From Eledone cirrhosa (lineage: Eukaryota), in contig OZ024747.1 in NCBI GenBank assembly GCA_964016885.1, forward strand, positions 76,384,001-76,448,000: DNA of 64,000 nucleotides, read 5' to 3'. Position 1 is the first letter of the stretch, and every line of letters starts with the position of its first letter. Of this stretch, positions 1 through 62,998 are shown in pieces. Position numbers and translations under genes: made by a program. The notes beneath the pieces were generated by a model, which saw only the letters and a program-made list of their open reading frames with translations, ran no database searches and was not told the DNA's origin.

Positions 1-3000
1 TTGACAGTATATGTAGAATGTATTGGTAGTATCTGTAGAATGTATTGGCAGTATATGTAGAATGTATTGGCAGTATCTGTAGAATGTATTGACAGTATAT
101 GTAGAATGTGTTGACAGTATATGTAGAATGTATTGACAGTATATGTAGAATGTATTGGCAGTATATGTAGAATGTATTGACAGTATCTGTAGAATATATT
201 GACAGTATATTTAGAATGTATTGACAGTATCTGTAGAATGTATTGACAGTATCTGTAGAAAGTATTGACAGTATCTGTAGAATGTATTAACAGTATATGT
301 AGAATGTAGTGACAGTATCTGTAGAATGTATTGACAGTATCTGTGGAATGTATTGACAGTATATGTAGAATGTATTGGCAGTATATGTAGAATGTATTGA
401 CAGTATATGTAGAATGTATTGGCAGTTTATGTAGAATCTATTGACAGTATCTGTAGAATGTATTGACAGTATATGTAGAATGTATTGACAGTATATGTAG
501 AATGTATTGGCAGTATATGTAGAATGTATTGACAGTATCTGTAGAATGTATTGACAGTATATGTAGAATGTATTGACAGTATATGTACAATGTATTGACA
601 GTATATGTAGAATGTATTGGCAGTATCTGTAGAATGTATTGACAGTATCTGTAGAATGTGTTGACAGTATCTGTAGAATGTATTGACAGTATATGTAGAA
701 TGTATTGACAGTATCTGTAGAATGTGTTGACAGTATCTGTAGAATGTATTGGCAGTATCTGTAGAATGTGTTGACAGTATCTGTAGAATGTGTTGACAGT
801 ATCTGTAGAATGTATTGACAGTGTATGTAGAAGGTATTGACAGTATCTGTGGAATGTATTGACAATATCTATAGAATGTATTGGCAGTATATGTAGAAGG
901 TATTGACAGTATCTGTAGAATGTATTGACAGTATCTGTAGAATGTGTTGACAGCATCTGTAGAATGTATTGACAGTATCTGTAGAATGTATTGTCAGTAT
1001 CTGTAGAATGTATTGGCAGTATCTGTAGAATGTATTGACAGTATCTGTAGAAAGTATTGGCAGTATCTGTAGAATGTATTGACAGTATCTGTAGAATGTA
1101 TTGACAATATCTATAGAATGTATTGGCAGTATATGTAGATGGTATTGACACTATCTGTGGAATGTATTGACAGTATATGTAGAATGTATTGACAGTATCT
1201 CTAGAATGTATTGACAGTATCTGTAGAATGTTTTGACAATATCTGTAGAATGTATTGACAGTATCTGTAGAATGTATTGACAGTATCTGAAGAATGTATT
1301 GACAGTATCTGTAGAATGTATTGACAGTATATGTAGAATGTATTGGTAGTATCTGTAGAATGTATTGGCAGTATATGTAGAATGTATTGGCAGTATATGT
1401 AGAATGTATTGGCAGTTTCTGTAGAATGTATTGACAGTATATGTAGAATGTATTGACAGTATCTGTAGAATGTATTGACAGTATCTCTAGAATGTATTGA
1501 CAGTATCTGTAGAATGTATTGACAATATCTGTAGAATGTATTGACAGTATCTGTAGAATGTATTGACAGTATCTGAAGAATGTATTGACAGTATATGTAG
1601 AAGGTATTGACAGTATCTGTGGAATGTATTGACAGTATATGTAGAATGTATTGGTAGTATATGTAGAATGTATTGACAGTATATGTAGAATATATTGACA
1701 GTATATGTAGAATGTATTGACAGTATCTGTAGAATGTATTGACAGTATCTGTAGAATGTATTGACAGTATATGTAGAATGTATTGACAGTATATGTAGAA
1801 TGTATTGGCAGTATATGTAGAATGTATTGACAGTATCTGTAGAATATATTGACAGTATATTTAGAATGTATTGACAGTATCTGTAGGATGCATTGACAGT
1901 ATCTGTAGAATGTATTGACAGTATCTGTAGGATGCATTGACAATATCTGTAGAATGTTTTGACAGTATCTGTAGAATGTATTGACAGTATCTGTAGGATG
2001 CATTGACAGTATATGTAGAATGTATTGACAGTATATCTAGAATGTATTGGTAGTATATGTAGAATGTATTGACAGTATATGTAGAATGTATTGACAGTAT
2101 CTGTAGAAAGTATTGACAGTATCTGTAGAATGTATTAACAGTATATGTAGAATTTATTGACAGTATCTGTAGAATGTATTGACAGTATCTGTGGAATGTA
2201 TTGACAGAATATGTAGAATGTACTGGCAGTATATGTAGAATGTATTGACAGTATATGTAGAATGTATTGGCAGTTTATGTAGAATGTATTGACAGTATCT
2301 GTAGAATGTATTGACAGTATATGTGGAATGTATTGACAGTATATGTAGAATGTATTGGCAGTATATGTAGAATGTATTGACAGTATATGTAGAATGTATT
2401 GGCAGTATATGTAGAATGTATTGACAGTATCTGTAGAATATATTGACAGTATATTTAGAATGTATTGACAGTATCTGTAGGATGCATTGACAGTATCTGT
2501 AGAATGTATTGACAGTATCTGTAGGATGCATTGACAGTATCTGTAGAATGTATTGACAGTATCTGTAGGATGCATTGACAATATCTGTAGAATGTATTGA
2601 CAGTATCTGTAGAATGTGTTGACAGTATCTGTAGAATGTATTGACAGTATATAAAGAATGTATTGACAGTATATGTAGAATGTATTGACAGTATATGTAG
2701 AATGTATTGACAGTATATGTAGAATGTATTGACAGTATATGTAGAATGTATTGACAGTATCTGTAGAATGTATTGGCAGTATATGTAGAATGTATTGACA
2801 GTATCTGTAGAATGTATTGACAGTATCTGTAGAATGTATTGACAGTATCTGTAGAATGTGTTGACAGTATCTGTAGAATGTATTGACAATATCTGTAGAA
2901 TGTATTGACAGTATCTGTAGAATGTATTGACAGTATCTGTAGAATGTATTGACAGTATCTGTGGAATGTATTGACAGTATATGTAGAATGTATTGGTAGT

Positions 3001-6000
3001 ATATGTAGAATGTATTGACAGTATCTGTAGAATGTATTGTCAGTATATTTAGAATGTATTGACAGTATATGTAGAATGTATTGACAGTATATGTAGAATG
3101 TATTGGCAGTATATGTAGAATGTATTGACAGTATCTGTTGAATGTATTGACAGTATATGTAGAATGTATTGACAGTATATGTAGAATGTATTGACAGTAT
3201 CTGTAGAATGTATTGACAGTATATGTAGAATGTATTGGCAGTATCTGTAGAATGTATTGACAGTATATGTAGAATGTATTGACAGTATCTGTAGAATGTA
3301 TTGACAGTATCTGTAGAATGTATTGACAGTATATGTAGAATGTATTGGCAGTATCTGTAGAATGTATTGACAGTATCTGTAGAATGTGTTGACAGTATCT
3401 GTAGAATGTATTGACAGTATATGTAGAATGTATTGACAGTATATTTAGAATGTATTGACAGCATATGTAGAATGTATTGGCAGTATATGTAGAATGTATT
3501 GACAGTATATGTAGAATGTATTGGCAGTATATATAAAATGTATTGACAGTATCTGTAGAATGTATTGACAGTATCTGTAGAATGTATTGACAGTATATTT
3601 AGAATGTATTGACAGTATATGTAGAATGTATTGACAGTATATGTAGAATGTATTGGCAGTATATGTAGAATGTATTGACAGTATCTGTTGAATGCATTGA
3701 CAGTATATGTAGAATGTATTGACAGTATATGTAGAATGTATTGACAGTATCTGTAGAATGTATTGACAGTATATGTAGAATGTATTGGCAGTATCTGTAG
3801 AATGTATTGACAGTATATGTAGAATGTATTGACAGTATATGTAGAATGTATTGGCAGTATCTGTAGAATGTATTGACAGTATCTGTAGAATGTATTGGTA
3901 GTATATGTAGAATATATTGACAGTATATGTAGAATGTATTGACAGTATCTGTAGAAAGTATTGACAGTATCTGTAGAATGTATTGACAGTATCTGTGGAA
4001 TGTATTGACAGTATATGTAGAATGTATTGGTAGTATATGTAGAATGTATTGACAGTATATGTAGAATGTATTGACAGTATCTGTAGAATGTATTGACAGT
4101 ATCTGTACAATGTATTGACAGTATATGTAGAATGTATTGGCAGTATCTGTAGAATGTATTGACAGTATCTGTAGAATGTATTGACAGTATATGTAGAATG
4201 TATTGACAGTATATTTAGAATGTATTGACAGTATATGTAGAATGTATTGACAGTATATGTAGAATGTATTGGTAGTATATGTAGAATGTATTGACAGTAT
4301 ATGTAGAATGTATTGACAGTATCTGTAGAAAGTATTGACAGTATCTGTAGAATGTATTGACAGTATATGTAGAATGTATTGACAGTATCTGTAGAATGTA
4401 TTGGCAGTATCTGTAGAATGTATTGACAGTATCTGTAGAATGTGTTGACAGTATCTGTAGAATGTATTGACAGTATATGTAGAATGTATTGGCAGTTTAT
4501 GTAGAATGTATTGACAGTATCTGTAGAATGTATTGACAGTATATGTGGAATGTATTGACAGTATATGTAGAATGTATTGGCAGTATATGTAGAATGTATT
4601 GACAGTATATGTAGAATGTATTGGCAGTATATGTAGAATGTATTGACAGTATCTGTAGAATATATTGACAGTATATTTAGAATGTATTGACAGTATCTGT
4701 AGGATGCATTGACAGTATCTGTAGAATGTATTGACAGTATCTGTAGGATGCATTGACAGTATCTGTAGAATGTATTGACAGTATCTGTAGGATGCATTGA
4801 CAATATCTGTAGAATGTATTGACAGTATCTGTAGAATGTGTTGACAGTATCTGTAGAATGTATTGACAGTATATAAAGAATGTATTGACAGTATATGTAG
4901 AATGTATTGACAGTATATGTAGAATGTATTGACAGTATATGTAGAATGTATTGACAGTATATGTAGAATGTATTGACAGTATCTGTAGAATGTATTGGCA
5001 GTATATGTAGAATGTATTGACAGTATCTGTAGAATGTATTGACAGTATCTGTAGAATGTATTGACAGTATCTGTAGAATGTGTTGACAGTATCTGTAGAA
5101 TGTATTGACAATATCTGTAGAATGTATTGACAGTATCTGTAGAATGTATTGACAGTATCTGTAGAATGTATTGACAGTATCTGTGGAATGTATTGACAGT
5201 ATATGTAGAATGTATTGGTAGTATATGTAGAATGTATTGACAGTATCTGTAGAATGTATTGTCAGTATATTTAGAATGTATTGACAGTATATGTAGAATG
5301 TATTGACAGTATATGTAGAATGTATTGGCAGTATATGTAGAATGTATTGACAGTATCTGTTGAATGTATTGACAGTATATGTAGAATGTATTGACAGTAT
5401 ATGTAGAATGTATTGACAGTATCTGTAGAATGTATTGAGAGTATATGTAGAATGTATTGGCAGTATCTGTAGAATGTATTGACAGTATATGTAGAATGTA
5501 TTGACAGTATCTGTAGAATGTATTGACAGTATCTGTAGAATGTATTGACAGTATATGTAGAATGTATTGGCAGTATCTGTAGAATGTATTGACAGTATCT
5601 GTAGAATGTGTTGACAGTATCTGTAGAATGTATTGACAGTATATGTAGAATGTATTGACAGTATATTTAGAATGTATTGACAGCATATGTAGAATGTATT
5701 GGCAGTATATGTAGAATGTATTGACAGTATATGTAGAATGTATTGGCAGTATATATAAAATGTATTGACAGTATCTGTAGAATGTATTGACAGTATCTGT
5801 AGAATGTATTGACAGTATATTTAGAATGTATTGACAGTATATGTAGAATGTATTGACAGTATATGTAGAATGTATTGGCAGTATATGTAGAATGTATTGA
5901 CAGTATCTGTTGAATGCATTGACAGTATATGTAGAATGTATTGACAGTATATGTAGAATGTATTGACAGTATCTGTAGAATGTATTGACAGTATATGTAG

Positions 6001-9000
6001 AATGTATTGGCAGTATCTGTAGAATGTATTGACAGTATATGTAGAATGTATTGACAGTATATGTAGAATGTATTGGCAGTATCTGTAGAATGTATTGACA
6101 GTATCTGTAGAATGTATTGGTAGTATATGTAGAATATATTGACAGTATATGTAGAATGTATTGACAGTATCTGTAGAAAGTATTGACAGTATCTGTAGAA
6201 TGTATTGACAGTATCTGTGGAATGTATTGACAGTATATGTAGAATGTATTGGTAGTATATGTAGAATGTATTGACAGTATATGTAGAATGTATTGACAGT
6301 ATCTGTAGAATGTATTGACAGTATCTGTACAATGTATTGACAGTATATGTAGAATGTATTGGCAGTATCTGTAGAATGTATTGACAGTATCTGTAGAATG
6401 TATTGACAGTATATGTAGAATGTATTGACAGTATATTTAGAATGTATTGACAGTATATGTAGAATGTATTGACAGTATATGTAGAATGTATTGGTAGTAT
6501 ATGTAGAATGTATTGACAGTATATGTAGAATGTATTGACAGTATCTGTAGAAAGTATTGACAGTATCTGTAGAATGTATTGACAGTATATGTAGAATGTA
6601 TTGACAGTATCTGTAGAATGTATTGGCAGTATCTGTAGAATGTATTGACAGTATCTGTAGAATGTGTTGACAGTATCTGTAGAATGTATTGACAGTATAT
6701 GTAGAATGTATTGACAGTATATGTAGAATGTATTGACAGTATCTGTAGAATGTATTGGCAGTATATGTAGAATGTATTGACAGTATCTGTAGAATGTATT
6801 GGCAGTATCTGTAGAATGTGTTGACAGTATCTGTAGAATGTATTGACAGTATATGTAGAATGTATTGACAGTATCTGTAGAATGTATTGGCAGTATCTGT
6901 AGAATGTATTGACAGTATCTGTAGAATGTATTGACAGTATCTGTAGAATGTGTTGACAGTATCTTTAGAATGTATTGACAGTATATGTAGAATGTATTGA
7001 CAGTATCTGTAGAATGTATTGGCAGTATGTGTAGAATGTATTGGCAGTATCTGTAGAATGTATTGACAGTATCTGTAGAATGTATTGGCAGTATCTGTAG
7101 AATGTGTTGACAGTATCTGTAGAATGTATTGACAGTATATGTAGAATGTATTGACAGTATCTGTAGAATGTATTGACAGTATCTGTAGAATGTATTGACA
7201 GTATATGTAGAATGTATTGGCAGTATCTGTAGAATGTATTGACAGTATCTGTAGAATGTATTGACAGTATATGTAGAATGTATTGACAGTATATTTAGAA
7301 TGTACTGACAGTATATGTAGAATGTATTGACAGTATATGTAGAATGTATTGGTAGTATATGTAGAATGTATTGACAGTATATGTAGAATGTATTGACAGT
7401 ATCTGTAGAAAGTATTGACAGTATCTGTAGAATGTATTGACAGTATCTGTGGAATGTATTGACAGTATATGTAGAATGTATTGGTAGTATATGTAGAATG
7501 TATTGACAGTATATGTAGAATGTATTGACAGTATCTGTAGAATGTATTGACAGTATCTGTAGAATGTATTGACAGTATATGTAGAATGTATTGGCAGTAT
7601 CTGTAGAATGTATTGACAGTATCTGTAGAATGTATTGACAGTATATGTAGAATGTATTGACAGTATATTTAGAATGTATTGACAGTATATGTAGAATGTA
7701 TTGACAGTATATGTAGAATGTATTGGTAGTATATGCAGAATGTATTGACAGTATATGTAGAATGTATTGACAGTATTTGTAGAAAGTATTGACAGTATCT
7801 GTAGAATGTATTGACAGTATATGTAGAATGTATTGACAGTATCTGTAGAATGTATTGGCAGTATCTGTAGAATGTATTGACAGTATCTGTAGAATGTGTT
7901 GACAGTATCTGTACAATGTATTGACAGTATATGTAGAATGTATTGACAGTATATGTAGAATGTATTGACAGTATCTGTAGAATGTATTGTCAGTATATGT
8001 AGAATGTATTGACAGTATCTGTAGAATGTATTGGCAGTATCTGTAGAATGTGTTGACAGTATCTGTAGAATGTATTGACAGTATATGTAGAATGTATTGA
8101 CAGTATCTGTAGAATGTGTTGACAGTATCTGTAGAATGTATTGACAGTATATGTAGAATGTATTGACAGTATCTGTAGAATGTATTGGCAGTATCTGTAG
8201 AATGTATTAACAGTATCTGTAGAATGTATTGACAGTATCTGTAGAATGTGTTGACAGTATCTTTAGAATGTATTGACAGTATCTGTAGAATGTATTGACA
8301 GTATCTGTAGAATGTATTGGCAGTATCTGTAGAATGTATTGGCAGTATCTGTAGAATGTATTGACAGTATCTGTAGAATGTATTGGCAGTATCTGTAGAA
8401 TGTGTTGACAGTATCTGTAGAATGTATTGACAGTATATGTAGAATGTATTGGCAGTATCTGTAGAATGTATTGGCAGTATATGTAGAATGTATTGACAGT
8501 ATATGTAGAATGTATTGACAGTATATGTAGAATGTATTGGCAGTATCTGTAGAATGTATTGACAGTATATGTAGAATGTATTGGCAGTATCTGTAGAATG
8601 TGTTGACAGTATCTGTAGAATGTATTGGCAGTATCTGTAGAATGTATTGACAGTATATGTAGAATGTAATGGCAGTATCTGTAGAATGTATTGACAGTAT
8701 CTGTAGAATGTATTGGCAGTATCTGTAGAATGTATTGACAGTATCTGTAGAATGTAATGGCAGTATCTGTAGAATGTATTGACAGTATCTGTAGAATGTA
8801 ATGGCAGTATCTGTAGAATGTATTGACAGTATCTGTAGAATGTATTGACAGTATCTGTAGAATGTAATGGCAGTATCTGTAGAATGTAATGGCAGTATCT
8901 GTAGAATGTATTGACAGTATATGTAGAATGTATTGGCAGTATCTGTAGAATGTATTGACAGTATCTGTAGAATGTATTGACAGTATCTGTAGAATGTATT

Positions 9001-10267
9001 GGCATTATCTGTAGAATGTATTGACAGTATATGTAGAATGTGTTGACAGTATCTGTAGAATGTATTGACAGTATCTGTAGAATGTATTGACAGTATCTGT
9101 AGAATGTATTGACAGTATCTGTAGAATGTATTGGCAGTATCTGTAGAATGTATTGACAGTATCTGTAGAATGTATTGGCAGTATCTGTAGAATGTATTGA
9201 CAGTATCTGTAGAATGTATTGACAGTATCTGTAGAATGTATTGGCAGTATCTGTAGAATGTATTGACAGTATATGTAGAATGTGTTGACAGTATCTGTAG
9301 AATGTATTGACAGTATCTGTAGAATGTATTGACAGTATCTGTAGAATGTATTGACAGTATCTGTAGAATGTATTGACAGTATCTGTAGAATGTATTGACA
9401 GTATCTGTAGAATGTATTGGCAGTATCTGTAGAATGTATTGACAGTATATGTAGAATGTGTTGACAGTATCTGTAGAATGTATTGACAGTATCTGTAGAA
9501 TGTATTGACAGTATCTGTAGAATGTATTGACAGTATCTGTAGAATGTATTGACAGTATCTGTAGAATGTATTGACAGTATCTGTAGAATGTATTGGCAGT
9601 ATCTGTAGAATGTATTGACAGTATATGTAGAATGTGTTGACAGTATCTGTAGAATGTATTGACAGTATCTGTAGAATGTATTGACAGTATCTGTAGAATG
9701 TATTGACAGTATCTGTAGAATGTATTGACAGTATCTGTAGAATGTATTGACAGTATCTGTAGAATGTATTGGCAGTATCTGTAGAATGTATTGACAGTAT
9801 ATGTAGAATGTGTTGACAGTATCTGTAGAATGTATTGACAGTATCTGTAGAATGTATTGACAGTATCTGTAGAATGTATTGACAGTATCTGTAGAATGTA
9901 TTGGCAGTATCTGTAGAATGTATTGACAGTATCTGTAGAATGTATTGACAGTATATGTAGAATGTGTTGACAGTATCTGTAGAATGTGTTGACAGTATCT
10001 GTAGAATGTATTGACAGTATCTGTAGAATGTATTGACAGTATCTGTAGAATGTATTGACAGTATCTGTAGAATGTATTGACAGTATCTGTAGAATGTATT
10101 GGCAGTATCTGTAGAATGTATTGACAGTATATGTAGAATGTGTTGACAGTATCTGTAGAATGTATTGACAGTATCTGTAGAATGTATTGACAGTATCTGT
10201 AGAATGTATTGACAGTATCTGTAGAATGTATTGGCATTATCTGTAGAATGTATTGGCATTATCTGCA
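1..10267 (+). repeat. 22-bp tandem satellite (consensus TTGACAGTATCTGTAGAATGTA), about 466 copies in window, running off the left edge
   Basis: Continuous 22-nt period. The unit starts at position 1 and still starts in register at 9901 (450 x 22). Variants are point changes (GAC/GGC, ATCT/ATAT, TGTA/TGTG). Confidence 0.99.
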
Positions 10268-10376
10268 GAGTATCAGCCAACATCTTTGTGAAATAGACTG
10301 GAGTCACATTCAAGTCCCACCGATGTTAAATTTGCTTTTCATCCTTACGGGGTCGATAAAATAAATCACCAGTAAC
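10268..10376 (+). mobile_element. Body of tRNA-derived SINE (B-box and central region) fused to the end of the 22-bp satellite
   Basis: TTCAAGTCCCACCGATGTTAAATTTGCTTTTCATCCTTACGGGGTCGATAAAATAAATCACCAGTAA matches the SINE copies at 17944, 19674 and 22346. Confidence 0.85.
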
Positions 10377-16637: not shown

Positions 16638-16667
16638 TAATCAGTTGATTCAGGTTTATTGAAAACT

Positions 16668-16725
16668 CCGTTATACATATTTCACTGAGGGGTATCAGTT
16701 ATCATAGCCAGAGCTCTTCAGACGA
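16668..16725 (-). ncRNA. Minimal type-I hammerhead ribozyme motif with intact core
   Basis: Minus strand: TCGT-CTGAAGA-GCT...AGT-GAAA-TATGTA-TA-ACGG, then AATAAA 7 nt downstream. Stem III is one C>T away from the palindrome ATACGTAT. Confidence 0.55.
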
Positions 16726-17022
16726 CAAAACCTATGAATATATTGAAAGTTCCTAAATAATTATCTTTAAATTTAAATGATTTTCTTTCCTTGATACAAG
16801 GGGACAGCCAAACGCGTTGTGTTGTTTCTTCGACGGTCGGTCTCTGTATGACTTTAAGAATGTTGGCGGAAGTGTTGGTCAGTTCATCTCCTACGTCACT
16901 ATAGCCGTAGTTCTTCTAGCAATAAAAATAATAACACCTTTTGAAATTTGAACATATAGCCGCCACCATACAAATGAGGTGAAAATAAGAATTTCTGACT
17001 GATAAAATGACAAGTTAGTCAA

Positions 17023-17943: not shown

Positions 17944-18122
17944 TGGATCGGCAGTATTGGTAGAGGGTTGGACGCCATGCTTTCCAGCATAGTTACGTCC
18001 CTTTATGATCTGAGTTCAAATCCCGCCGAGGTTGACTTTGCCTTTCATCCTTACGGGGTCGATAAAATAAAGTACCAGTAATGCACTGGGTAATTGCTGG
18101 CCTTGTGCCTAAAGTAGAAACA
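17944..18122 (+). mobile_element. Full-length tRNA-derived SINE with 18-bp TSD
   Basis: A-box-like GGCAGTATTGGTAGA and B-box GAGTTCAAATCC. TSD ATTATAATACCATTATAA at 17926-17943 and 18123-18140. Confidence 0.9.
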
Positions 18123-18242
18123 ATTATAATACCATTATAAATTTTAAAGGATTGTAAATAAAACGAGTAAATCAGACAAAGTTGGAATTCCTTTTATTAA
18201 TATAATCTTCTATACACAATCATACACACCCGTGTATATTTA

Positions 18243-18286
<44 letters not shown>

Positions 18287-18291
<5 letters not shown>

Positions 18292-18396
18292 CGATGATTT
18301 GATCAGAGACACACACTGTATTTAAGGTCGAGTGACGCAATTTCGAGGGATTAGCGACTTTTAGACTCACCTGATCAATGAAACAATCGTTAATAC
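18287..18396 (+). ncRNA. Degenerate minimal hammerhead motif abutting (TA)n
   Basis: TATT-CCGATGA-T-TTGATCAG...CTGATCAA-T-GAAA-CAATCG-TT-AATA, then AATAAA at 18401. Perfect 8-bp stem II base; stem III one change from ACGATCGT. Confidence 0.55.
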
Positions 18397-18445
18397 TGTA
18401 AATAAAACCCTTTTTGTACAGCCGACCATGTTATTCTTCACTCTT

Positions 18446-19503: not shown

Positions 19504-19673
19504 GCATGTATGTATGTATATATACATATCAGTGTTATGTCAACTGATGCAGAATCAGATGCGTGAGGCTGTTTAGAAAAAAGCTAAACGAATATAAACA
19601 CCGCGGTAATGGAATCAGATAAAAACTACAAGAGGAAAATAACATGTACATCAGCATTATTAATAACAACATT

Positions 19674-19846
19674 GGCAGTATCGGTAGAGGGTTGGACGCC
19701 ATGCTTTCTAGCATAGTTACGTCCCTTTACAGTCTGAGTTCAAATCCCGCCGAGGTTAACTTTGCCTTTCATCCTTACGGGGTCGATAAAATAAAGTACC
19801 AGTAATGTACTGGGTATTTGCTGGCCTTGTGCCTAAAGTAGAAACA
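19674..19846 (+). mobile_element. Full-length tRNA-derived SINE with 18-bp TSD
   Basis: Same family as 17944. TSD ATTATTAATAACAACATT at 19656-19673 and 19847-19864. Confidence 0.9.
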
Positions 19847-19864
19847 ATTATTAATAACAACATT

Positions 19865-19974: not shown

Positions 19975-21036
19975 ATTTCATTTATTGGCCACAAGGGCCC
20001 ACATATAGGGGACAATACAAAAGACTGGGACAGTGGGGTTTTTCAGAAAAATCGAGTAAACAATATGAATCACAATAACAAAGTAACAATAAAATTACAA
20101 CAAGAAAAAAATTCCCCAATAGGAGGGATGACCACCCAGGGTTCGCTCAGGTACCCCACCAATCCTGAACAACCCGACGCTTCGAGAGCACCCTGGAAGG
20201 GCACCCCTCTCCTCCTCAAATTTACCCACCTACAGCCGCATGACCAGAGTAGGCCCACTCACACGGGCCATTCTCGCCACATTCACCCACCTTTCAGAAA
20301 ATGTACTGGGGGGCAGCACTTCTCTCTCCACCCTCACCTTCCTTTCCAAGTGAAACTTGAAAAAGTTGATGAGGGATTGGCCGAAGAGAAAAGTGTCTGT
20401 CTTCAGTCCTTTCAACCTCGTCCACCATATAACCTCTTTCGCTACTACCACCAGACAGAGGAAAATTGCCTGCCCTTCCTGGCCAAAAGAAGGCGGTGGG
20501 CCGATCTTCACTATGGACTCGGCCGATAGCCGGATCCGTTCTACACGCGACAACAGCTGTTCGACATAACTCCACAAGTCAGTAATGCACAGACACTGGA
20601 CGAGTGCGTGCAGAACAGTTTCGTCGCTCTGCGCGCATCTCGGACAGGTCCGTCTGACAGCACTTCCGTGCCTGTAGAGTTTATCTCGAACCGGCAGTGC
20701 CCCCCGGTAGCACTTCCAAGCGAGGGATTTTTGGAAATTATCCATCGTCCCCGGCCCGAAAGTCCTCCGGTACAGACTGGTTAGTTCGACTTCGTCGACT
20801 CCCAGAGCCTCTCCGAGTGCGTCGTCGCACTTGCCCACATCTAATCCTATAGAACTCGAGAGTGGAAGTTCCACTGACCGCATTGCCCGCCTGGTAGAGG
20901 GAAGTGAGTGCCTGGCAACATTCCAGATGCCAGTCACCCAGTCTCGGTCTCTTGTTGACCCAGGACTGCAGCTCAGTCAAATAGACGAGCTGCGGAAAGG
21001 CCCGTCTGAAAAACGGTGACCGCACCTGTTCACCGT
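19975..21036 (-). mobile_element. 5'-truncated, frameshifted L1/Tx1-clade LINE (ORF2 C-terminus + 3' UTR)
   Basis: ORFs 20738-21025 and 20230-20937 align with the ORF2 end of the full-length element (LTELQSWV, RTFGPG.MDNFQKSLAW.CYRGALPVR, CPRC...ETV.HALVQC, ERWV.VARMARV). The 3' end reads AATAAATGAAAT. Confidence 0.92.
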
Positions 21037-21102: not shown

Positions 21103-22345
21103 TATTACTACTACTACCACCAGCATTACTACTGCCACTATAACTACTACAACTAACACCATTAATACTGCCACTATTACTACTACTGAGATCAAAGTGA
21201 GTGAATTTGTCACTACTTTAAAACAATAGCTTACGGTCTTCAAAATGCTTTTAATTAAGCATAAAGTGTATTGCAAAATACATTATATATACATCCATAT
21301 ATATATATATAAGAGCAGTGCGCATGACCATTTTCAAAGATTCGGAGATTGCTTAAATGGAAAGATGATTTCTGAATCTCGAAACTTGACCTAAATGATA
21401 CCAACAGTGTGAATTCTGCTAAAGGCTTCCTGTGATCAGTTGGTGTGTTACGGTATTAGATTAAGTCTACTCCTCCCCAACTAAGCTACAAGACATATAT
21501 GGTAAGGCAATTTGTTCCACTGCCCTGAACTTTTTATTTTGTTGATACAGAATGGATGAACGTTAAATTTGGCCTCAGCTGGATTTGAACTCAGAACACA
21601 GACAGCTGTGACACACTCTTCAACGTATTTTATCCTACGTTATAAAGACTCTACCATACAGTGTAAACACCAAAAGGATTTCAACATTTGTTGATAGTCC
21701 CTGCAACATAGGATATAATCTAACGGGAAAAACAAACACACAAATATTCCTCCAAGGATGTGCAAATGGGCAAATACACAATCCTGTAACTGCTACACTG
21801 CTAGTTAAAATAAAAATTGTGTATGCAACTTTACTCCAACCGTTGCTGGATTAAATACTAGCTTTACTGTGAAGCTGACTACAAATATAACCAGAGCATT
21901 CATGAAAGAAACCAGGACACTAATTCAGTTTCTAATTCTGTGGAATGTATAAAATTCTACAAGAAAACGTATTCTAGCAATATCCGGTTCTTGAGAAATC
22001 TAGCTGTCAGAGAACATACAATGCCAATTGTAATGACAGAGACAGATTCCTCACTATAAAAACGAACCACTGAGAAGGAATATAATCGGTTTCATTCCTT
22101 ACAGAATTACCAGGTTATACAAAAGAAAATTATACGTCGTGTTATCTATTTAAAAGGTTCTCATCTTCACACACAAATTACCTATATTCAAAGAACATTG
22201 ATAAAGAGCAGATAAAGAGAGTTCTGAATAATACACTACACACCAGATGAACAATGAAATGTAGAAACGAATACTTGTATCATGGAGAAGGTGTTGACTT
22301 GTTGTCATATATTAGTTACTCAATACATTTAGACCACATTATTTA

Positions 22346-22520
22346 TTGGCAGTATCTGTAGAGGGTCGGACGCCATGCTTTCCAGCATAGTTACGTCCCT
22401 TTACGATCTGTATTCAAACCCCGCCGAGGTTGACTTTGCCTTTCATCCTTACGGGGTCGATAAAATAAAGTACCAGTAATGCACTGGGTATTTGCTGGCC
22501 TTGTGCCTAAAGTAGAAACA
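22346..22520 (+). mobile_element. tRNA-derived SINE
   Basis: Same family; short TSD ATTATTTA. The head ATTGGCAGTATCTGTAGA is identical to a satellite-1 monomer variant. Confidence 0.9.
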
Positions 22521-22628
22521 ATTATTTAATTATTCTGTGCAGAGATTCAGTATTGTATCAAAGGAACGATCATATCCAGATATATTTGAAAATACAAGAT
22601 GATGTTATTTGACAACTCTAGAAATAAT

Positions 22629-22811
22629 TGTTTCTACTTTTGGCACAAGGCCATCAATTACACAGTACATTACTCGTACTTTATTTTATCGACCCCGTAA
22701 GGATGAAAGGCAAAGTTAACCTCGGCGGGATTTGAACTCAGAATGGCAAGGGCCGTAACTCTATGCGTCAAAGCATGGCGTCCGACCCTCTACCGATACT
22801 GCCAATCCACC
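22629..22811 (-). mobile_element. tRNA-derived SINE with 18-bp TSD
   Basis: Reverse-complement copy. TSD GACAACTCTAGAAATAAT at 22611-22628 and 22812-22829. Confidence 0.9.
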
Positions 22812-22901
22812 GACAACTCTAGAAATAATGATGAAACAAATGTGTTATTGTTATATAAAACGATAAGCCGTTTGAGCAGTCGATGCTCGCGCAGAGCAGA
22901 G

Positions 22902-23200
22902 TATTATAGATAACGAGGTATAAGTGCTGCATCAAAACACAATTTATTAACATATTACATATGTTTCTCCGACGATCAGCTCAAGGCAGGATCTGTTACA
23001 GATCGAACCTGACTCAGATATGTTTTACGCTTTCAAAGCAATCGGATGAAATGCTTTGAAACATATCGGAGGACCTTGCGAATGCAGAGTCAGGTTCAAT
23101 CTGTAACAGATCCTGCCTTGAGTTGATCGTCGGAGAAACATATGTAATATATTAACAAATTGTATTTTGATGCATCACTGATTCCTCATTATCTATAATA
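22902..23200. mobile_element. Foldback element with about 114-bp inverted arms and a partly palindromic spacer
   Basis: 22902-23015 vs 23087-23200 are reverse complements with scattered mismatches. The spacer has GATATGTTT/AAACATATC and TTTCAAAGCA/TGCTTTGAAA. Confidence 0.88.
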
Positions 23201-24237: not shown

Positions 24238-24811
<574 letters not shown>

Positions 24812-25833: not shown

Positions 25834-26507
25834 GATAAATTTCAGAAAGTCGGTAGAATGCGGTAGAAATATATAAAAGGCAAACGATGAGAAATAAAAC
25901 AAAGTAATGTTTTACGCAGTATATATCAAGATGATATTTCAGGGCTAATACCCCCTCTTCATATGTTAAAGGAAAACGGTTCTAAAGAGCTGAGCTGGTA
26001 GAAAGCTGGGAATTTAGAGTTAGTAAGTTCAACAGTTTTTACTATGAAATATAATCTAAGTTCAGCATATAAGCAAGTGGTTCGCAGTACAGGCTTGTAC
26101 AGTGTCATACATTCAGTGTCATTGTACAGTGTCATTGTACATTGTCATATATACGTACATACATACATATGTACATACATACATAGGTACATACATAGAT
26201 CCATACAATTCGAGATTGCAATTAAGTAATTGATAGTCGTCAGCAATATTAAGTGAGTTTTAGGTTGCCATTGAAAGGTTATTGTTGTTTATATCGGTGA
26301 AGAACAATGGATTGTATCTGTTGGTCTGCGGTTTTCCTTGGGAAACGTTTACTCTATCTATCTCGTTATGTTTGGAAGTGTTAATGCTGTATTGTCTGGG
26401 ATGTTCAATACAGGAGTGACTATTGAATATAATATATATAAATATATATATATATATATAGTATAAAAAAACGAAAAGTCAGTGATGCATCTGGACTCAG
26501 TTTATTG

Positions 26508-26598
26508 CGTGTTACAATTGTTTCGCCGGCAGGTAGCTCGAAACATGATCACTGTATGGATCTGGCTGATTCTACGATTGCAGGTTCCTTCGGACACG
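26508..26598 (-). ncRNA. Minimal hammerhead motif (inverted-arm copy)
   Basis: Reverse complement of the 26748-26838 motif. Confidence 0.55.
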
Positions 26599-26747
26599 GG
26601 TAGTTCGTTCGGAGCAAATTTTCTCACTGGGGTGTTATCGTCAAAAAACACCTTCAAAAAACATCTTGACAAGAGTGGAAGATGTTTTTTGAAGGTGTTT
26701 TTTGACGATAACACCCCAGTGAGAAAATTTGCTCCGAACGAACTACT

Positions 26748-26838
26748 CGTGTCCGAAGGAATCTGCAGCCCTAGAATCAGCCAGATCCATACAGTGATCA
26801 TGTCTCGAGCTACCTGCCGGCGAAACAATTGTAACACG
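26748..26838 (+). ncRNA. Minimal hammerhead motif
   Basis: CGTGT-CCGAAGG-...GCAG...CTGCCGGC-GAAA-CAATTG-TA-ACACG, followed by AATAAA at 26840. Confidence 0.6.
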
Positions 26839-27063
26839 CAATAAACTGAGTTCAGATGCATCACTGGTTTTTCGTTTTTTTATACTATCCACACACTACT
26901 CTGTATGAATAGCTACCATTATACACAAGTATATATATGTATGTATGTATATATATATTTCTAGAAAACAAAAGCCAATAGCAAGACAAGAGTGGAAGAT
27001 GATTTTGATGGTGTTTTTTAAAGCTAACACCCCAGTGAGAAAATTTGTTCCGAAAGCATTGCA

Positions 27064-27153
27064 TGTGTCCGAAGAACCCGCAGTTCTAGAATCAGACAGA
27101 TCCATACAATGATCGTGTCTCGAGCTATCTGCCGGCGAAACAATTGTAACACA
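27064..27153 (+). ncRNA. Minimal hammerhead motif (tandem copy)
   Basis: TGTGT-CCGAAGA-ACCCGCAG...CTGCCGGC-GAAA-CAATTG-TA-ACACA, running directly into AATAAA. Confidence 0.65.
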
Positions 27154-27273
27154 ATAAACTGAGTCTAGATGCATCACTGATTTTTTGTTTTATATTATAT
27201 CCCACTCTGCTCTGTAAGAACATAGAGTGCTCAACTGGCATACCGCCTATGGAAGCACCATAGCTACCATTAA

Positions 27274-27320
<47 letters not shown>

Positions 27321-32150: not shown

Positions 32151-32178
<28 letters not shown>

Positions 32179-32186
<8 letters not shown>

Positions 32187-33049
32187 AAGTGAGTCCTTCA
32201 TCAGTGACCCTCCAACCGTCCTCGGCATTTCATCGCTTTAAGGGCCATATGCCTCAGGTTGGTGCGAACAACGGCTAAAAAAAGTCGTTGGGACACGTAA
32301 ACAAAGGGGACGCTAGAGTAACAACAAAAAAGTTTAAGCAACGGAAATGCTGCCTTCGTCTGTTTCGTTCCTTGTATCTTTACCACTTCTAGCAGTCTCT
32401 CTCTCTGTTAGCCTCCTCCTCAACTTTCACTCACTCATTCTCTGTCACTACCTCTCCTCCTCCTCTTTCCTCCTCCTCCTTCAAGTTTGACCTGTGTGTA
32501 ATTCTTTTCTCGCGCGGTCTTGACCGAGCTGGTATGGAATTTTTTTCTCTCTCTCTTTCGTCTGCGACTTCACAAAACTTGCGTTTACCGAATTCGTAGA
32601 CCAGACCCCTTTATCTTCTTCTTCTTCTTCTTCTTCTTCTTCTTCTTCTTCTTCTTCTTCTTCTTCTTCTTCTTCTTCTTCTTCTTCTTCCTCTTCTCTC
32701 CTTTCTCTCTCCCCCCCCCCCCGTCAAACTTGGGCGAAATTCTTTCCTTGCTCACATTTCAACCAGGTTTGATTGTCTTTTGTCTCTTGTTCACGATTTC
32801 ACAGAGTTTATATTCATAGAGATCTGGGACTTGTCTATTTCTACTCACTTTCCGTTGCTTAAACTTTTTTGTTGTTACTCTAGCGTCCCCTTTGTTTACG
32901 TGTCCCAACGACTTTTTTTAGCCGTTGTTCGCACCAACCTGAGGCATATGGCCCTTAAAGCGATGAAATGCCGAGGACGGTTGGAGGGTCACTGATGAAG
33001 GACTCACTTTTTCATATGTATCCCATTTGCAGCGCCGCAGCTCCATTAT

Positions 33050-33050
<1 letters not shown>
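32179..33050 (+). mobile_element. Family A element with 5' inverted copy of its 3' end
   Basis: 32179-32347 is the reverse complement of 32849-33017 (about 169 bp). Internal (TTC)n tract; flanked by (TA)n. Confidence 0.88.
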
Positions 33051-33094
<44 letters not shown>

Positions 33095-37689: not shown

Positions 37690-38124
37690 ATTCCTTAATA
37701 TCGAGATATTAAAAATAATAATTCTGTGATACTTTTGGCTGAGAATTCAGTTACCCATCTAAGCAGAAAAAATATGTATGTACTGTAATATAGAAATATA
37801 TTTTAAAAAGCTGTTTGATACATTCTTTTGCATGTAAGCTTTTACTTGCATAACTATGAGTAACATAATAATTTTTTTTCCAGTGGAGGTGTCATATGAT
37901 GATATATGAGGGGCATCTGAATAGCTAATAGGCTTAATAGGAAGAATTGATGCTAGAGCTGTGAAGTTTTCCATTTATTAATTTCAACTCTTCTTATAAA
38001 TAACTGCATTCTTTCTCGAGACTATGTTGTAAAATAAATCACATTTGGTCATTCCATGTGAGTATCTTGGTCAACTTGTGAACTGTTCAGTCGACCTTCA
38101 TAGTGTTCTATATATATATATATA

Positions 38125-38808
38125 TATTTACGTGTCCCAACGACTTTTTTTAGCCGTTGCTCGCACCAACCGGAGGTATATGGTCTTTAAAGCGATGAAA
38201 TACCAATGATGGTTGGAAGATCACTGATGAAGGACTAACTTTATTCATATGTAACCCATTTGCAACCACGCAGCACGTTTATTCTCATATTTACACAGAT
38301 TTTTTTCCCCCGCTGTGACCCGTCTATTTCGTTCTTACTGCTTCCTCTTTCTCTGTATCTTTACCCTCTCTAACAGTCACTCTCTCTGTTAGCCTCTTCC
38401 TCACCCTTCACTCACTCACTCTCTGTTACTACCTCTCCTCCTCCTCCTTCTTCCCGTTTGACCTGTGCGTAATTCTTTTCTTTCGCACGCTTGGTCAGGC
38501 TGGTTCGCCTTTTTTCTCTCTCTCGTCTACGATTTCACAGAACTTATGTTTACCGAATTCACGGACTAGATTCCTTCTTCCTCCCGTTAGACCTGTACGG
38601 AATTCCTTCCTTGCTCACATTCCAACCAGGTTTGATGGTCTTTATTCTCTCTCGTTCACGATTTCACCGAACTTATATTCATGGAAATTTGGGACTTGAC
38701 TCGTTCTTCCTCACTTGTCGTTGCTTCACCATCTTTGTTTGTTTACACTCTCGTGTCCCCTTTATTTACGTGTCCCAACGACTTTTTTTAGCCGTTGCTC
38801 GCACCAAC
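38125..38808 (+). mobile_element. Family A element with terminal direct repeat (638-bp period)
   Basis: TATTTACGTGTCCCAACGACTTTTTTTAGCCGTTGCTCGCACCAAC at 38125-38170 and again at 38763-38808; TA-rich flanks. Confidence 0.88.
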
Positions 38809-40540: not shown

Positions 40541-41672
40541 CCGACCCTCAATGGATGAAAGGGAAAGTTGACCTCTCTGGGATTTGGACTCAGAGAGCAG
40601 AGAGCCAAAACGTATACCGCAAAACATTCTATCTGACGTTCTAACGACTGCCATTCTATCTGACGCTCTCACCACTCTACCATTCTATCTGACATTCTCA
40701 CCACTCTACCATTCTATCTGACATTCTCACCACTCTACCATAATATCTGACGTTCTAACCACTCTAGCATTCTATCTGACGCTCTCACCACTCTGCCATT
40801 CTATCTGACGTTCTCACCACTCTACCATTCTATCTGACGCTCTCACCACTCTAGCATTCTATCTGACGCTCTCACCACTCTGCCATTCTATCTGACGTTC
40901 TCACCACTCTACCATTCTATCTGACGCTCTCACCACTCTACCATTCTATCTGACGTTATCACCACTCTACCATTCTATCTGACGTTCTAACCACTCTACC
41001 ATTCTATCTGACGTTCTCACCACTCTGCCATTCTATCTGACGTTCTCACCACTCTACCATTCTATCTGGCGTTCTCACCACTCTACCATTCTATCTGACG
41101 TTCTAACCACTCTACCATTCTATCTGACGTTCTCACCACTCTACCATTCTATCTGACGTTCTAACGACTGCCATTCTATCTGACGTTCTCACCACTCTGC
41201 CATTCTATCTGACGCTCTCACCACTCTACCATTCTATCTGACGTTCTCACCACTCTGCCATTCTATCTGACGTTCTAACCACTCTACCATTCTATCTGAC
41301 GTTCTAACGACTGCCATTCTATCTGACGTTCTCACCACTCTACCATTCTATCTGACGTTCTCACCACTCTACCATTCTATCTGACGTTCTCACCACTCTA
41401 CCATTCTATCTGACGTTCTCACCACTCTACCATTCTATCTGACGTTCTCACCACTCTACTATTCTATCTGACGTTCTCACCACCCTACCATTCTATCTGA
41501 CGTTCTAACCACTCTACCATTCTATCTGACGTTCTCACCACTCTACCATTCTATCTGACATTCTAACCACTCTACTATTATATCTGACGTTCTAACCACT
41601 CTACCATTCTATCTGACGTTCTAACAACTCTACCGTTCTATCCGACGTTCTAACAACTCTGCCAATTTACCG
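40541..41672 (-). mobile_element. tRNA-derived SINE with an internal tandem expansion of its head
   Basis: Minus strand: GGTAAATTGGCAGAGTTGTTAGAACGTCGGATAGAA head, then the array, then CTGAGTCCAAATCCCAGAGAGGTCAACTTTCCCTTTCATCCATTGAGGGTCG body. Confidence 0.82.
40625..41665 (+). repeat. 29-bp tandem satellite (CATTCTATCTGACGTTCTCACCACTCTAC), about 36 copies with a few 27-bp variants
   Basis: Tandem units read directly from the sequence. Confidence 0.97.
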
Positions 41673-44537: not shown

Positions 44538-45069
44538 ATGTGTGTGTGTGTGTGTGTGTGTGCATATATGAAGTGACAGAGAGCAAAAGAGAGCACGAAT
44601 GAGAGACACACTCATATATATATATGTGGAGGGGTGTATGTGTGTGTGTGTGTGTGAGAGAGCTTGAGTGCATATAATTACCGGTTAAATATCATGTAAT
44701 TATACTTGTGTTGTCATTGAAAATGACAGCAATTTAGAGTGCATTCATTAGATAAGTATCCTTTAGAGTTATAAAATTATGCTTTTTTATAAAATTTTCT
44801 GTCAAAATTATGCCAAAATTATGGAGGAAAATAAATCAATAATGTAATTATTATTTAATTCTTCATTTTAGTAATTTCTTAGTTTATTTAATTTTATTAT
44901 TTTGGAAATAATCAAGAATTCTATGTGATAAAGAAATATATTTTTTAATTGTTGAAACACGCACAAATGATGTGAAATGTTGTCTCTTTAGCAGTCGTCT
45001 TAGCATTGTATACCTGAATCACTATCAGAATTTATTGGTAAACATTATAAATGAACAACATAAAGGCAA

Positions 45070-45460
45070 TGGATTGGTGATATTGGAAGAGCGTCGAACA
45101 ACAAGCATAGTGGCATAGAGTTACAGCCCTTTACGTTCTGAGTTCAAATGCCTCCAAAGTTAGCTTTGCCTTTCATCATTACGGGGTCGATAAAATAAAG
45201 TACCTGTAGCATACTGGGGCCGATTCAATCGGCTTTCCTCTCCCCTCAAATTGCTGGCCTTGTGCCTATAGTAGAAATCATTATTATTATTGTTATATAT
45301 GCTTTGCCGCATATAGTTATGGCCCTTTACATTCTGAAATTAGCTTCCTCTTTCATTATTCAGGTACAATAAAACAAAGTACCAATAATGCACTGGTGGC
45401 GATTTAATTGATTCCTCTCCCCCTAACTTGTTGGCCTCCTGCTTAAATAAGCAACCGTTA
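45070..45460 (+). mobile_element. Two tandem diverged tRNA-SINE copies
   Basis: TTCTGAGTTCAAATG...GCCTTTCATCATTACGGGGTCGATAAAATAAAGTACC...GGCCTTGTGCCTATAGTAGAAA-(ATT)n, followed by a more decayed copy. Confidence 0.8.
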
Positions 45461-48722: not shown

Positions 48723-48912
48723 CATCTTTACCCCTCCTAGAGGTGAAAAACCTGTTTTAAAAAAAATTTTGTGTAAAAAATTTCAATCGTCTAACAGAAA
48801 TGTTAAACGCAGCGAACGAAAATAGTGGTGGGGGACAGCGGTAAGAGTTGTAAGCTCGCACGCTTTAGTCCTCCCTTCCTTCCCAACTAACGTCATAGAG
48901 AAGGAAGGAAAA

Positions 48913-50676
48913 ATGAAAATAAAAACGGACGAATCTGCGGAGAAAAAATTAAATGACGAAAACAACGAAAAAAAAAAATTTGAAAAATTGCATGACAATA
49001 CTAATAACACAAACAAAGACACAACAAACAAAAAAATAACAGTTGAAAATAACATAATATCAGAAAACAAAGCAGACGACAAGATTTCATTTGCACAGAA
49101 AACAAAGAAATCTTTGACTTATATAGCGGAAAACATTTCAGATGTGGTACGAAGGATCACGGACGCAAAACAATACATAAGTGAAGGTGAGAATGGTATT
49201 TTATTGGTAAAAATGCCTCAAGAATTCACGAAAGACATTGAAAGCCGAACGGTCAAGTTTCGGACCATCAACAACAGTACAAAAAAACCTGAACAGCCTT
49301 CTCAAGCAGATATCAAAACAGTACTCGCAGAAGTACTGAATGAAACAACTTTCATAAGAAAAGACAGACTGTATGGAAGCCTAGCAATTATCATGAAGAA
49401 CGAATCGGCGGCAAAAAAATGTGCTTTGTCACCGATTCGTTCGAAAAATTTCACCTTTTATCCATCTTATATGGGGAAAAAAACTCAACGCATATGGCTG
49501 GATGCAATGATGCCAGATGTGGACTACTGCTGGCTCATAGCTGGCTTCATCGATCCAGTGAATGACAACGTGATTTCCATTGGGAAAACCACAGGCAATG
49601 CGTTCAGTGGAACAGGTATAGAGCTGGTAGTACAAATGAAGCCTGAACGCATCGCCCAAATACCCGACAGAATCCTATTAGAGGACCACGGGTATATAAA
49701 CATTAGCGTGGAGGGGAGAAGGCCGTCCTGCCATATCTGTGCAGGCAGAGGGCACCTGAAGGCCGCTTGTCCCCAACTCAACAAAAAGAAAACCCTGCTA
49801 CCAACACCAGCTCCACCACCACCACCACAACAGATAAACAAACAACAAAACTCAGTCCCACCCAACCCGTCCCTCAGTAACACCACAACACCACCACAAC
49901 ACAAACAGTCACAACACATTACCCCAAAACAAAATACAGGCCCACCCAACCTCTCACTCAATAAAACAACACAACCACCGCAGACACAACACACAACACA
50001 GTCTAACATAGTGACATCCATCTCCCCCACAAAGAAAACCAACACGGAAACATTACCAGCAAACATACCTCTTCCCTCCAACACTGAAGATAACCCAACG
50101 AATTCGGAGGAAGAAACGGAGTCCTTCAGACAGATTAAAAGGAAAAAAAGAAAACATGTGCAAAACACACAAGGACAAACAACCCCCACCCAAATCGCAA
50201 CACAATCTAACAAAACAGAAAACACCCCTCCAGCAACAAACAAAACCAAACCTGCCCCTCCCCTCTTCGAAACACTCACACCATCGGAAAAAAAGACATT
50301 ACACTATACTTACATCAACAGAAACAATAATAAATTAAATGAACTCATATACAATAATCCTTCGGTACAAACCGAAGGTGTAAACTTTGTTTCATCAGAA
50401 AACCACCCACATTTAAAACTAATAAAAATCCCAATGAACCTCTACCAAAAACTAAAAAAGGATTTTAAGGAGGACGTAGGACCACCCTCTGTCAAACCCA
50501 TAAACCGCGTCCTACTAAAAAGCTTTCCCCCTCCCCTTCCCCTCCCCAACACAACTCCAAACACCCCAACCCCACCACACACCGACGACCCCACACCACC
50601 ACAAGACACCCCTTCACCCAACACCCCCGACCCCATGGAAGTCGTGCAACCCGAACCCCGGGAAGCGGAAAGGTAG
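48913..50676 (+). CDS. LINE ORF1 protein (nucleic-acid binding; CCHC zinc knuckle; Pro/Thr/Gln-rich C-terminal half)
   Basis: 587-aa ORF with CHICAGRGHLKAAC (CX2CX4HX4C), located upstream of the RT ORF. Confidence 0.9.
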   Translation: MKIKTDESAEKKLNDENNEKKKFEKLHDNTNNTNKDTTNKKITVENNIISENKADDKISFAQKTKKSLTYIAENISDVVRRITDAKQYISEGENGILLVKMPQEFTKDIESRTVKFRTINNSTKKPEQPSQADIKTVLAEVLNETTFIRKDRLYGSLAIIMKNESAAKKCALSPIRSKNFTFYPSYMGKKTQRIWLDAMMPDVDYCWLIAGFIDPVNDNVISIGKTTGNAFSGTGIELVVQMKPERIAQIPDRILLEDHGYINISVEGRRPSCHICAGRGHLKAACPQLNKKKTLLPTPAPPPPPQQINKQQNSVPPNPSLSNTTTPPQHKQSQHITPKQNTGPPNLSLNKTTQPPQTQHTTQSNIVTSISPTKKTNTETLPANIPLPSNTEDNPTNSEEETESFRQIKRKKRKHVQNTQGQTTPTQIATQSNKTENTPPATNKTKPAPPLFETLTPSEKKTLHYTYINRNNNKLNELIYNNPSVQTEGVNFVSSENHPHLKLIKIPMNLYQKLKKDFKEDVGPPSVKPINRVLLKSFPPPLPLPNTTPNTPTPPHTDDPTPPQDTPSPNTPDPMEVVQPEPREAER

Positions 50677-50709
50677 GTCTCTACACTCTCCTTTGGCTCT
50701 GCCGCCCAC

Positions 50710-61799: not shown

Positions 61800-62837
61800 T
61801 TGCAATTGTGCTTGCGTAATAAGATAGAAATAAATATAGATTTCAAGTGCATAGAAAGTTCTATTCTAAAAAAACTATAATCTTCAGTATAGATGTTGAA
61901 TGTCACATTGAACAGGAAATATATGATTGTTTAAATTGTGTTGCTCTAAAGTAAATATAGAGAGAAGCAAGAGTTGCTATGGAGAAGTTAGTGTCTGTAC
62001 GATAAATGCAAGAACAATAATTACTATTATTATTGCCAAAGGTTAACTTTTAAATACTGTGAAAGATAAAGGATTTTCTGTAGCATGAAAATGGTGTATG
62101 CTTTCTGAAGTCTACACATACACATTAGTACGTATATAGTGTTCAATCTACACTAAGCACAGAATTTTCAAATGTATTCATGAAATTGATTCTGAAAAAT
62201 ATCTGAAATAAAATCACAGATTTAATAAAAGGAAGGAACGTTGGATAATGTTGATGTCGGCGTTATATCTTAAAATATGTGATGACCATTGCGATATTGC
62301 ATTTTTCATGATTGGTCGATAAGATCAGGACTGATTTGGGAGGATAAACACAACCGGTGCTACATATGAAGGGCTATCTGGATGTGTAAGGAATGGAGCC
62401 TCTTGAGCTACCTCTCTCAGTCCAGAAAAGCCCTAAGAAATATATACAGACGGTTAGTTACAGCATACTGTGTTTTTACTCTCAAACTCCTTGCTAAGAC
62501 GTACATATCTATGAAAATAACATAGGAACAGTAAATATCGTTAACTGAGACCATCTTCCTTACCAGAATGTACTGACGTAAAGACGAAGCAATAAGTTTG
62601 CTTCTATGATGGAGTCACTATGCTTGCTACATTCGGTGGCTAAATCCCTTACATGTGTTTTCCTGTTATCTAAAACATTTTCGGCATATCACATAAATTA
62701 ATGGTTTCTGATTTAGACACTAGTCCAACAATTTTTGGGGAGGGTAAAGTTGATTAAATCAATATAAATGGATGTACAGAAACAAAACGGCCGTGGTGTG
62801 TCGTTCAGAGACAAACAATCCTGATAATGATAATAAT

Positions 62838-62998
62838 ATTGTTTCTACTTTAGGCACAAAGTACTGGTGCTTTATTTTAACGAACCCGTAAGGTTGAACG
62901 CAAAGTTAACCTGGCGGGATTTGAACCCAGAACGTAAAGAGCCATAACTCCTATGCTGCAAAGCATGGTGTCCGACCCTCTACCGATACTGCCAATCC
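62838..62998 (-). mobile_element. tRNA-derived SINE copy (internal deletion near tail)
   Basis: GGATTTGAACCCAGAACGTAAAG...GTCCGACCCTCTACCGATACTGCCAATCC is the reverse complement of the family head. Confidence 0.85.

Follow-up and report, generated by a model that had tools for sequence, protein, structure and literature searches.

Three hammerhead-bearing ends of a putative Penelope-type element in a TA microsatellite of Eledone cirrhosa

Results and Discussion

Structure of the locus

Three motifs of the type I hammerhead fold, two direct and one inverted, were found at one locus of the analyzed stretch of the Eledone cirrhosa genome (64,000 nt of contig OZ024747.1; hereafter the window). 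In our assessment, they probably represent three ends of an abundant repeat family, all non-coding and truncated at 5', which a Penelope-type reverse transcriptase would have placed into a TA microsatellite in two insertions; no double cut releasing a 315-nt RNA is predicted. This explanation would make the locus an ordinary Penelope-type insertion footprint in a known layout.

The locus is bounded by a (TA)n flank (26428..26460), the likely insertion target, and by a (CA)n(TA)n flank (27273..27315). The three copies between them are termed A (the minus-strand arm, 26458-26667), B (26679-26921) and C (26962-27272). Arm A is an inverted 5'-truncated element end that stops at a tail-less terminus. 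An unpaired 11-nt spacer at the fold-back (26668..26678, plus strand), which is element sequence common to C at 26985, separates it from arm B, which extends on the plus strand to the same tail-less terminus (26679..26888) and is followed by a tail (26889..26921) that lacks about 40 nt compared with the C tail. The segment absent from the B tail lies between ATAG repeats in the C tail. A (TA)/(TATG) microsatellite (26922..26961) separates B from C, which is 5'-truncated near 26962, reaches the tail-less terminus at 27200 (26962..27200, plus strand) and has a tail of about 70 nt (27201..27272, plus strand). B and C terminate at the same base, and in both of them microsatellite sequence comes next.

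Motif A (26509..26597, minus strand) has the core CCGAAGGA starting at 26593 and one broken stem II pair. Motif B (26749..26837, plus strand) starts with GTGT at 26749 and continues with the core CCGAAGGA at 26753-26760, GAAA at 26822, CAATTG and a GUA site ending at 26833, after which cleavage is predicted. The corresponding elements of motif C (27065..27152, plus strand) are GTGT at 27065, the core CCGAAGA at 27069-27075, GAAA at 27137 and a predicted site ending at 27148. All three motifs of the original prediction are thus present, each one base further along the window than it had placed them. Its spacing of 316 nt between B and C is also correct when measured from start to start; a unit measured from cut to cut would have 315 nt.

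The arms A and B, 210 nt each, are 96% complementary. There are 9 differences per 207 positions between A and B, and 28 per 203 positions plus four gap columns between B and C (Fisher p=0.0009); 26 differences against C are common to A and B. The inverted arm is therefore nearly identical to the adjacent one and the tandem copy is more diverged, as had been noticed earlier. Conversion within the palindrome could have lowered the divergence between A and B. The centre of the fold-back can also be read as a short palindrome TCTTG-A-CAAGA.

The repeat family in public contigs

Assembled contigs of four public runs, with a best word share of 0.40, were aligned to the window at 80% likeness; X1-X3 represent one sample. 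Between 3,080 and 3,275 contigs per run align to the stretch in X1-X3, and six in X4; no contig spans the locus. For the 5' end of C, summed contig depth in X1 is approximately 2,000; it increases to approximately 33,000 at the three cores and 390,000 at the three AATAAA regions, and along the tail it declines from 144,000 to 86,000, all of these being depths and not copy numbers. This gradient is the pattern of 5'-truncated retrocopies, and it suggests that in most copies of the family the truncation has removed at least part of the hammerhead. Both a high-copy signal with 5' truncation, seen in the depth gradient, and microsatellite flanks, seen in the flank sequence, are present.

Loose contig ends made of (TA)n are concentrated behind 27200 and behind 26888, the latter being the point where A meets its flank. 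This position is therefore a terminus of the family. Loose contig ends were also found upstream of C. Upstream of the shared start of B and C, the contigs continue in sequence other than microsatellite (18 contigs with an agreement of 0.89 in X1; also in X4), which follows C as far back as about 26962 and, beyond this point, is unlike the microsatellite of the window. C is thus truncated there, and its 316-nt spacing from B is probably accidental and probably not a unit of the family. Opposite-strand joints occur at other positions as well, at least two of them among 15 of 45 joints listed. A scan of metagenomes with a 20-mer yielded six loci, none of which matches the element beyond 20-25 nt, and these were discarded as chance hits.

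Hammerhead fold and its non-canonical core

A relaxed descriptor of the type I hammerhead, written after the motifs had been seen, found six cores in the window (A, B, C, 18291, 23067 and, on the minus strand, 16721) against a mean of 0.04 and a maximum of one in 200 local dinucleotide shuffles. The core at 23067 belongs to a related two-armed insertion (22861..23200) composed of D, which is on the minus strand, tailed and with the core deleted, and E, which is on the plus strand, tail-less and has the core CGGAGGA; it is a relative with 60-63% identity over the common part. Unconstrained RNAalifold on A, B, C and E returned the whole type I fold. Compensatory changes were observed in 8 of the 28 pairs (three in stem I, two in the stem II base and three in the stem II extension), in a set of four sequences of which three are close, with nearly all of the compensation coming from E and the structure taken from the same alignment. 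The distance from A9 to G12 is 61 nt in A, B, C and E alike. The three-helix junction follows the type I order of the CUGA block, the GAAA block and the cleavage site; GAAA, the A15.1-U16.1 pair and the NUH site are intact, and GAAA CAATTG TA is found in all three copies. Covariation with the 63%-identical relative at 23.1 kb identifies the three motifs as type I hammerhead folds. The fold and the palindromic stem III of the original proposal are both supported.

Single-copy folds of the six motifs are no better than those of shuffles (z from -1.7 to 0.5). The Rfam search of the window gave no matches at the gathering score and no hammerhead at E<=10 either; the 25 sub-threshold matches in 26400-27300 include no hammerhead. 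A permuted (type-SGC) hammerhead was considered and rejected: the block order is canonical and no CUGANGA follows GAAA within the element. The type-SGC form has the block order of site, GAAA and CUGA; permuted types are described in PMC10085705.

The core consensus of the hammerhead in its conventional numbering is CUGANGA, in agreement with the literature. It is absent from all three copies: C has CCGAAGA, and CCGAAGGA in A and B can be read with one additional G or with G in place of A9. The extra G disrupts the spacing of G8 and A9, and the first pair of stem II (10.1-11.1) is A·C in A, B and C instead of being paired (usually G-C); both features had been overlooked in the original prediction. 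The fourth pair of stem II is Y·C in A, B and C, and an unpaired C at this pair is found in A, B, C, E and 16721 but not in 18291. In E, position 4 is G and stem II opens with C·A; the core of D is lost. Among the six descriptor cores, CTGA is present only in 16721; position 4 is other than U in five of them, representing three of four families, and the first pair of stem II is mismatched in five of six.

Perreault 2011 (PMC3088659) describes a strong loss of activity in vitro with U4C but continued infectivity of a viroid that has this change; of the mismatches at 10.1-11.1, U·U is tolerated best. The original prediction regarded C4, which it saw in the three copies and at 18291, as a possible family variant. 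C4 is indeed present at all four places, but 18291 belongs to another family, with no BLAST match and no match of model R1 at E<=1. Within the family, C4 is common in contigs, but U4 contigs exist too. The share of U4 in the depth at B is 159/1,316 (12%), 163/355 (46%) and 228/429 (53%) in three runs, with 10, 13 and 11 contigs, respectively. At C, where the depth of neighbouring positions is several thousand units, C>T is absent among 40 of 108 variant rows listed. The U4 copies could be decay products, because C4 lies within a CpG. The master state of the family at position 4 may be either C or U.

In their dimensions the motifs resemble the minimal type I hammerheads of metazoan PLEs described by Cervera and de la Pena 2014 (PMC4209133), which have a stem I of 4-5 bp, a stem II base of 7-8 bp and a small palindromic stem III. 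They differ from them in U4C, in A·C in place of G10.1-C11.1, in the extra G of A and B and in extending stem II by about 45 nt. Hydra-clade hammerheads, including Hydra-1_Obim (Craig 2021, File S2), share the insertion into (TA)n and the frequent mismatch of the first stem II pair, and Penelope-13_HM of this clade likewise has an inverted copy with the motif on both strands. In contrast to our copies, the cores listed there are all CTGA and loops 2 have 3-10 nt. The clade itself is recognized by RT/EN motifs (RWK, DKT, no CCHH), which belong to an ORF that the copies here lack. Five 10-12-mer motifs of the A/B/C family have no matches in the supplement of Craig 2021.

The core changes might belong to an active master element, in which the fold would be kept as a protein-assisted ribozyme or as a scaffold to which the Penelope protein binds, would tolerate changes at position 4 and at the first pair of stem II, and would dimerise in trans via stem III; we regard this only as a tentative possibility. 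The equally tentative picture of the family would be a Penelope-type lineage at high copy with a drifted core (N4 free, the first pair of stem II open and the fourth Y·C) and a 61-nt stem II arm under pairing selection, the RNA being either a ribozyme completed by a protein or a docking site of the retroelement protein. The non-U position 4 and the mismatched first pair in several families, the constant distance from A9 to G12 and the pairs changed on both sides are consistent with it. So is the variation in contigs, where position 7 is variable, as expected, and one pair of stem II has variants on each side, unphased (A>G at 27082 in 33, 50 and 13%; T>C at 27130 in 51-58%). On the other hand, A, B and C do not count as independent cases, E is a single old copy, and the share of U4 at B argues against a master with a changed position 4. 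The comparison with other hammerheads is divided: 14 of the 26 Hydra-clade rows in File S2 of Craig 2021 have a U·U first pair, but all 26 have CTGA, a result bound by the descriptor. Folding is divided as well, since two C copies in trans have a lower energy as a double hammerhead (-51.4) than as separate monomers (-48.4), but their best co-fold (-61.7) has a structure other than the hammerhead. An active master is a statement about the family, not about the locus, and is compatible with two insertions. If it were true, standard CUGANGA searches would miss drifted-core elements, and a successful family in which the fold persists without the core would allow the structural role of the hammerhead to be separated from the catalytic one.

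Penelope-type origin and insertion history

The end structure of the copies is of Penelope type, as the original prediction held. A and B form an inverted 5'-truncated head-to-head copy; the tail is present at one end only, with two fixed 3' termini (A is tail-less, B and C are tailed); the flanks are (TA)n and the family is abundant and 5'-truncated. Head-to-head arms with a one-sided tail recur at D/E and at 32.2/33.0 kb. The scan of 83 of the 96 listed frames of the window revealed no reverse transcriptase or GIY-YIG frame, the 13 omitted frames being those that overlap ORF2 of a LINE; this is as expected for stubs. The assignment to Penelope elements is therefore made from structure, and we consider this origin of A, B and C probable. 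An inverted pLTR with a one-sided tail, and partial tandems with an adjoining inverted truncated copy, are PLE layouts according to Craig 2021 (PMC8557442) and Arkhipova 2013 (PMC3846280). The 5'-truncated insertions of EN+ PLEs described in these papers and in Frangieh 2024 (PMC11167929) resemble the locus in the head-to-head inverted copy, the tail at one end, the (TA)n target, the strong 5' truncation and the hammerhead near the 3' end. They differ in that the ORF is absent here, the tail is about 70 nt compared with 30-40 reported, and the two direct copies belong to different subfamilies, with a microsatellite in between. Penelope expansions were reported in Octopus vulgaris (PMC13282606), in an account in which ribozymes are unmentioned.

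We propose that the (TA)n tract would have been nicked by a Penelope-type endonuclease and that reverse transcription would have started from either of two fixed internal sites separated by about 70 nt, with tailed or tail-less ends as the outcome. One event would have halted at 26668, and the mirror arm would have been made by self-priming or by priming from both DNA ends, resulting in A and B. C, from another subfamily, would have been inserted into the same tract before or after A and B. The hammerhead fold would be inherited from the parent element and at best weakly active in these copies. Several reported properties of PLEs agree with these steps: internal initiation of reverse transcription occurs in vitro (PMC11167929), junction palindromes have been read as a result of self-priming (PMC3846280), and PLEs tend to insert into or beside earlier copies (PMC6765202). 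Two insertions into one (TA)n tract would be the simplest reading of the sequence, with the anatomy of A, B and the tail being the same as at D/E and at 32.2/33.0 kb. The unpaired spacer is exactly 11 nt at both fold-backs (26668-26678 and 23041-23051); other spacers are found in contigs, and the coincidence may be due to chance.

A single insertion is an unlikely alternative to the two events. In this case, read-through RNA of a donor with B-like and C-like copies would have been reverse transcribed from the C tail through the microsatellite to B and then, by fold-back, to A. This would account for the proximity of A to B and the distance of C, and two direct pLTRs plus one inverted are described as the textbook layout of a single event, with DNA captured between pLTRs (PMC3846280). 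However, A, B and the tail already make a complete two-armed insertion like D/E, and the single event requires a donor locus, none of which was seen. Even then the tandem is accidental in origin.

The proposed dimer ribozyme

The original prediction regarded B and C as a ready-made dimer that releases a unit of about 316 nt, i.e. as consecutive retrozyme-like units whose double hammerhead frees a 315-nt linear or circular RNA. We find this improbable. Its starting points are real: B and C can pair with each other through the 8-bp palindrome ACAATTGT (probability about 0.17), the exchanged stems I are complementary, and the spacing is of a length seen in animal retrozymes (150-450 nt; PMC7229834). 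However, in models that ignore tertiary contacts and protein, the double-hammerhead fold of 26700-27200 is 9.7 kcal/mol above the minimum, and the ensemble probabilities are 0.036 for the C core on the B site (the GUA, 2 kcal/mol from the ensemble), 2e-8 for the B core on the C site and 5e-9 for both. In a double hammerhead the site of one copy is cut by the core of the other, and the 315-nt piece is freed by two cuts. A working cis dimer is unsupported because the B core, the worst one, must cut the C site, and B has U4C, the extra G and the least favourable fold.

Arm A makes the dimer still less probable. In a plus-strand transcript from the left, arm A is antisense and pairs with B into a 210-bp hairpin that sequesters it, with a gap of 151 kcal/mol, and the probability of the best site drops to 5e-24; in a minus-strand transcript the same happens to A, with a gap of 137 kcal/mol. 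The T7 construct of 26700-27200 suggested for an assay omits this arm. Also, the spacer between B and C consists of tail and microsatellite, unlike the upstream sequence of the family, and the steep 3' bias of depth differs from the flat profile that arrays would give. Among Xenopus dimers, one of nine was cleaved in vitro according to 10.64898/2026.07.22.740005, and PLE minimal dimers show weak cleavage in PMC4209133, which also describes opposite-strand pairs of minimal hammerheads 100-700 bp apart in Schistosoma. Metazoan non-LTR retrozymes (PMC7229834; bioRxiv 10.64898/2026.07.22.740005) are similar to the locus in being non-coding, in having a type I hammerhead and in their spacing of about 300 nt; the locus lacks their homogeneous tandem units and canonical cores. 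Consecutive complete retrozyme units are absent here, and the cores are incomplete.

The folding energies are nevertheless compatible with some activity, given the single-site probability of 0.036, the infective U4C viroid and the dependence of the anole PLE hammerhead on protein; the copies might still make one weak cut, or RNAs of the family might dimerise in trans. The anole hammerhead cleaves only with its protein, and this protein-assisted cleavage is dispensable for insertion in vitro according to one paper (PMC11167929). Neighbouring hammerheads with a palindromic stem III need not form a functional dimer.

Finally, the 431-nt palindrome with its 210-nt arms at 96% could be read as a miniature DNA transposon or as a selected hairpin RNA gene, but this is very improbable given that the arms are truncated copies whose family also occurs unpaired (C), that opposite-strand joints are found elsewhere in contigs, and that the Rfam miRNA matches are far under the gathering score. 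A scar of ADAR in the arms was considered and rejected, with one A>G and one T>C only among the eight polarisable differences between A and B.

Other elements in the window

Two candidate promoter elements were rejected. CCAAT at 26975-26979, present in C and absent from A and B, fails a strict internal-promoter pattern and is not above chance in the window. A CRE-like 8-mer, found upstream in the contigs of the family and upstream of the 16721 motif (16891-16898, minus strand), occurs in the window at the chance rate.

The motif at 16655-16730 on the minus strand is hammerhead-like, with the canonical core CTGAAGA and C·C at the fourth pair of stem II. About 300 nt upstream of it there is a frame whose end presumably resembles the tail of a non-LTR restriction-like endonuclease; it has no Pfam match. 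An unrelated hammerhead-like motif at 18287-18400 on the plus strand directly follows (TA)n; its core is CCGATGA, its first pair U·U, and its stem II region spans 82 nt. In four copies of a further family (24500-24700, 32160-32350 on the minus strand, 32860-33060 and 38110-38300), GAAA precedes CTGATGA; the copies at 32.2 and 33.0 kb form an inverted pair with the tail on one arm.

An apparently intact LINE occupies 48826-54147 on the plus strand and encodes a 616-aa ORF1-like frame and a 1156-aa ORF2 with endonuclease, RT and zf-RVT domains; its 3' fragment, 68% identical, is located at 20245-21034. A dispersed SINE-like repeat of 140-190 nt was found at 17947-18134, 19671-19859, 22345-22526, 22623-22809, 45068-45218 and 62824-63008, and forms an inverted pair at 22345-22809. 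The window also contains a 22-bp satellite (1-10269, about 467 copies) and a 29-bp minisatellite (40625-41664, 36 copies).
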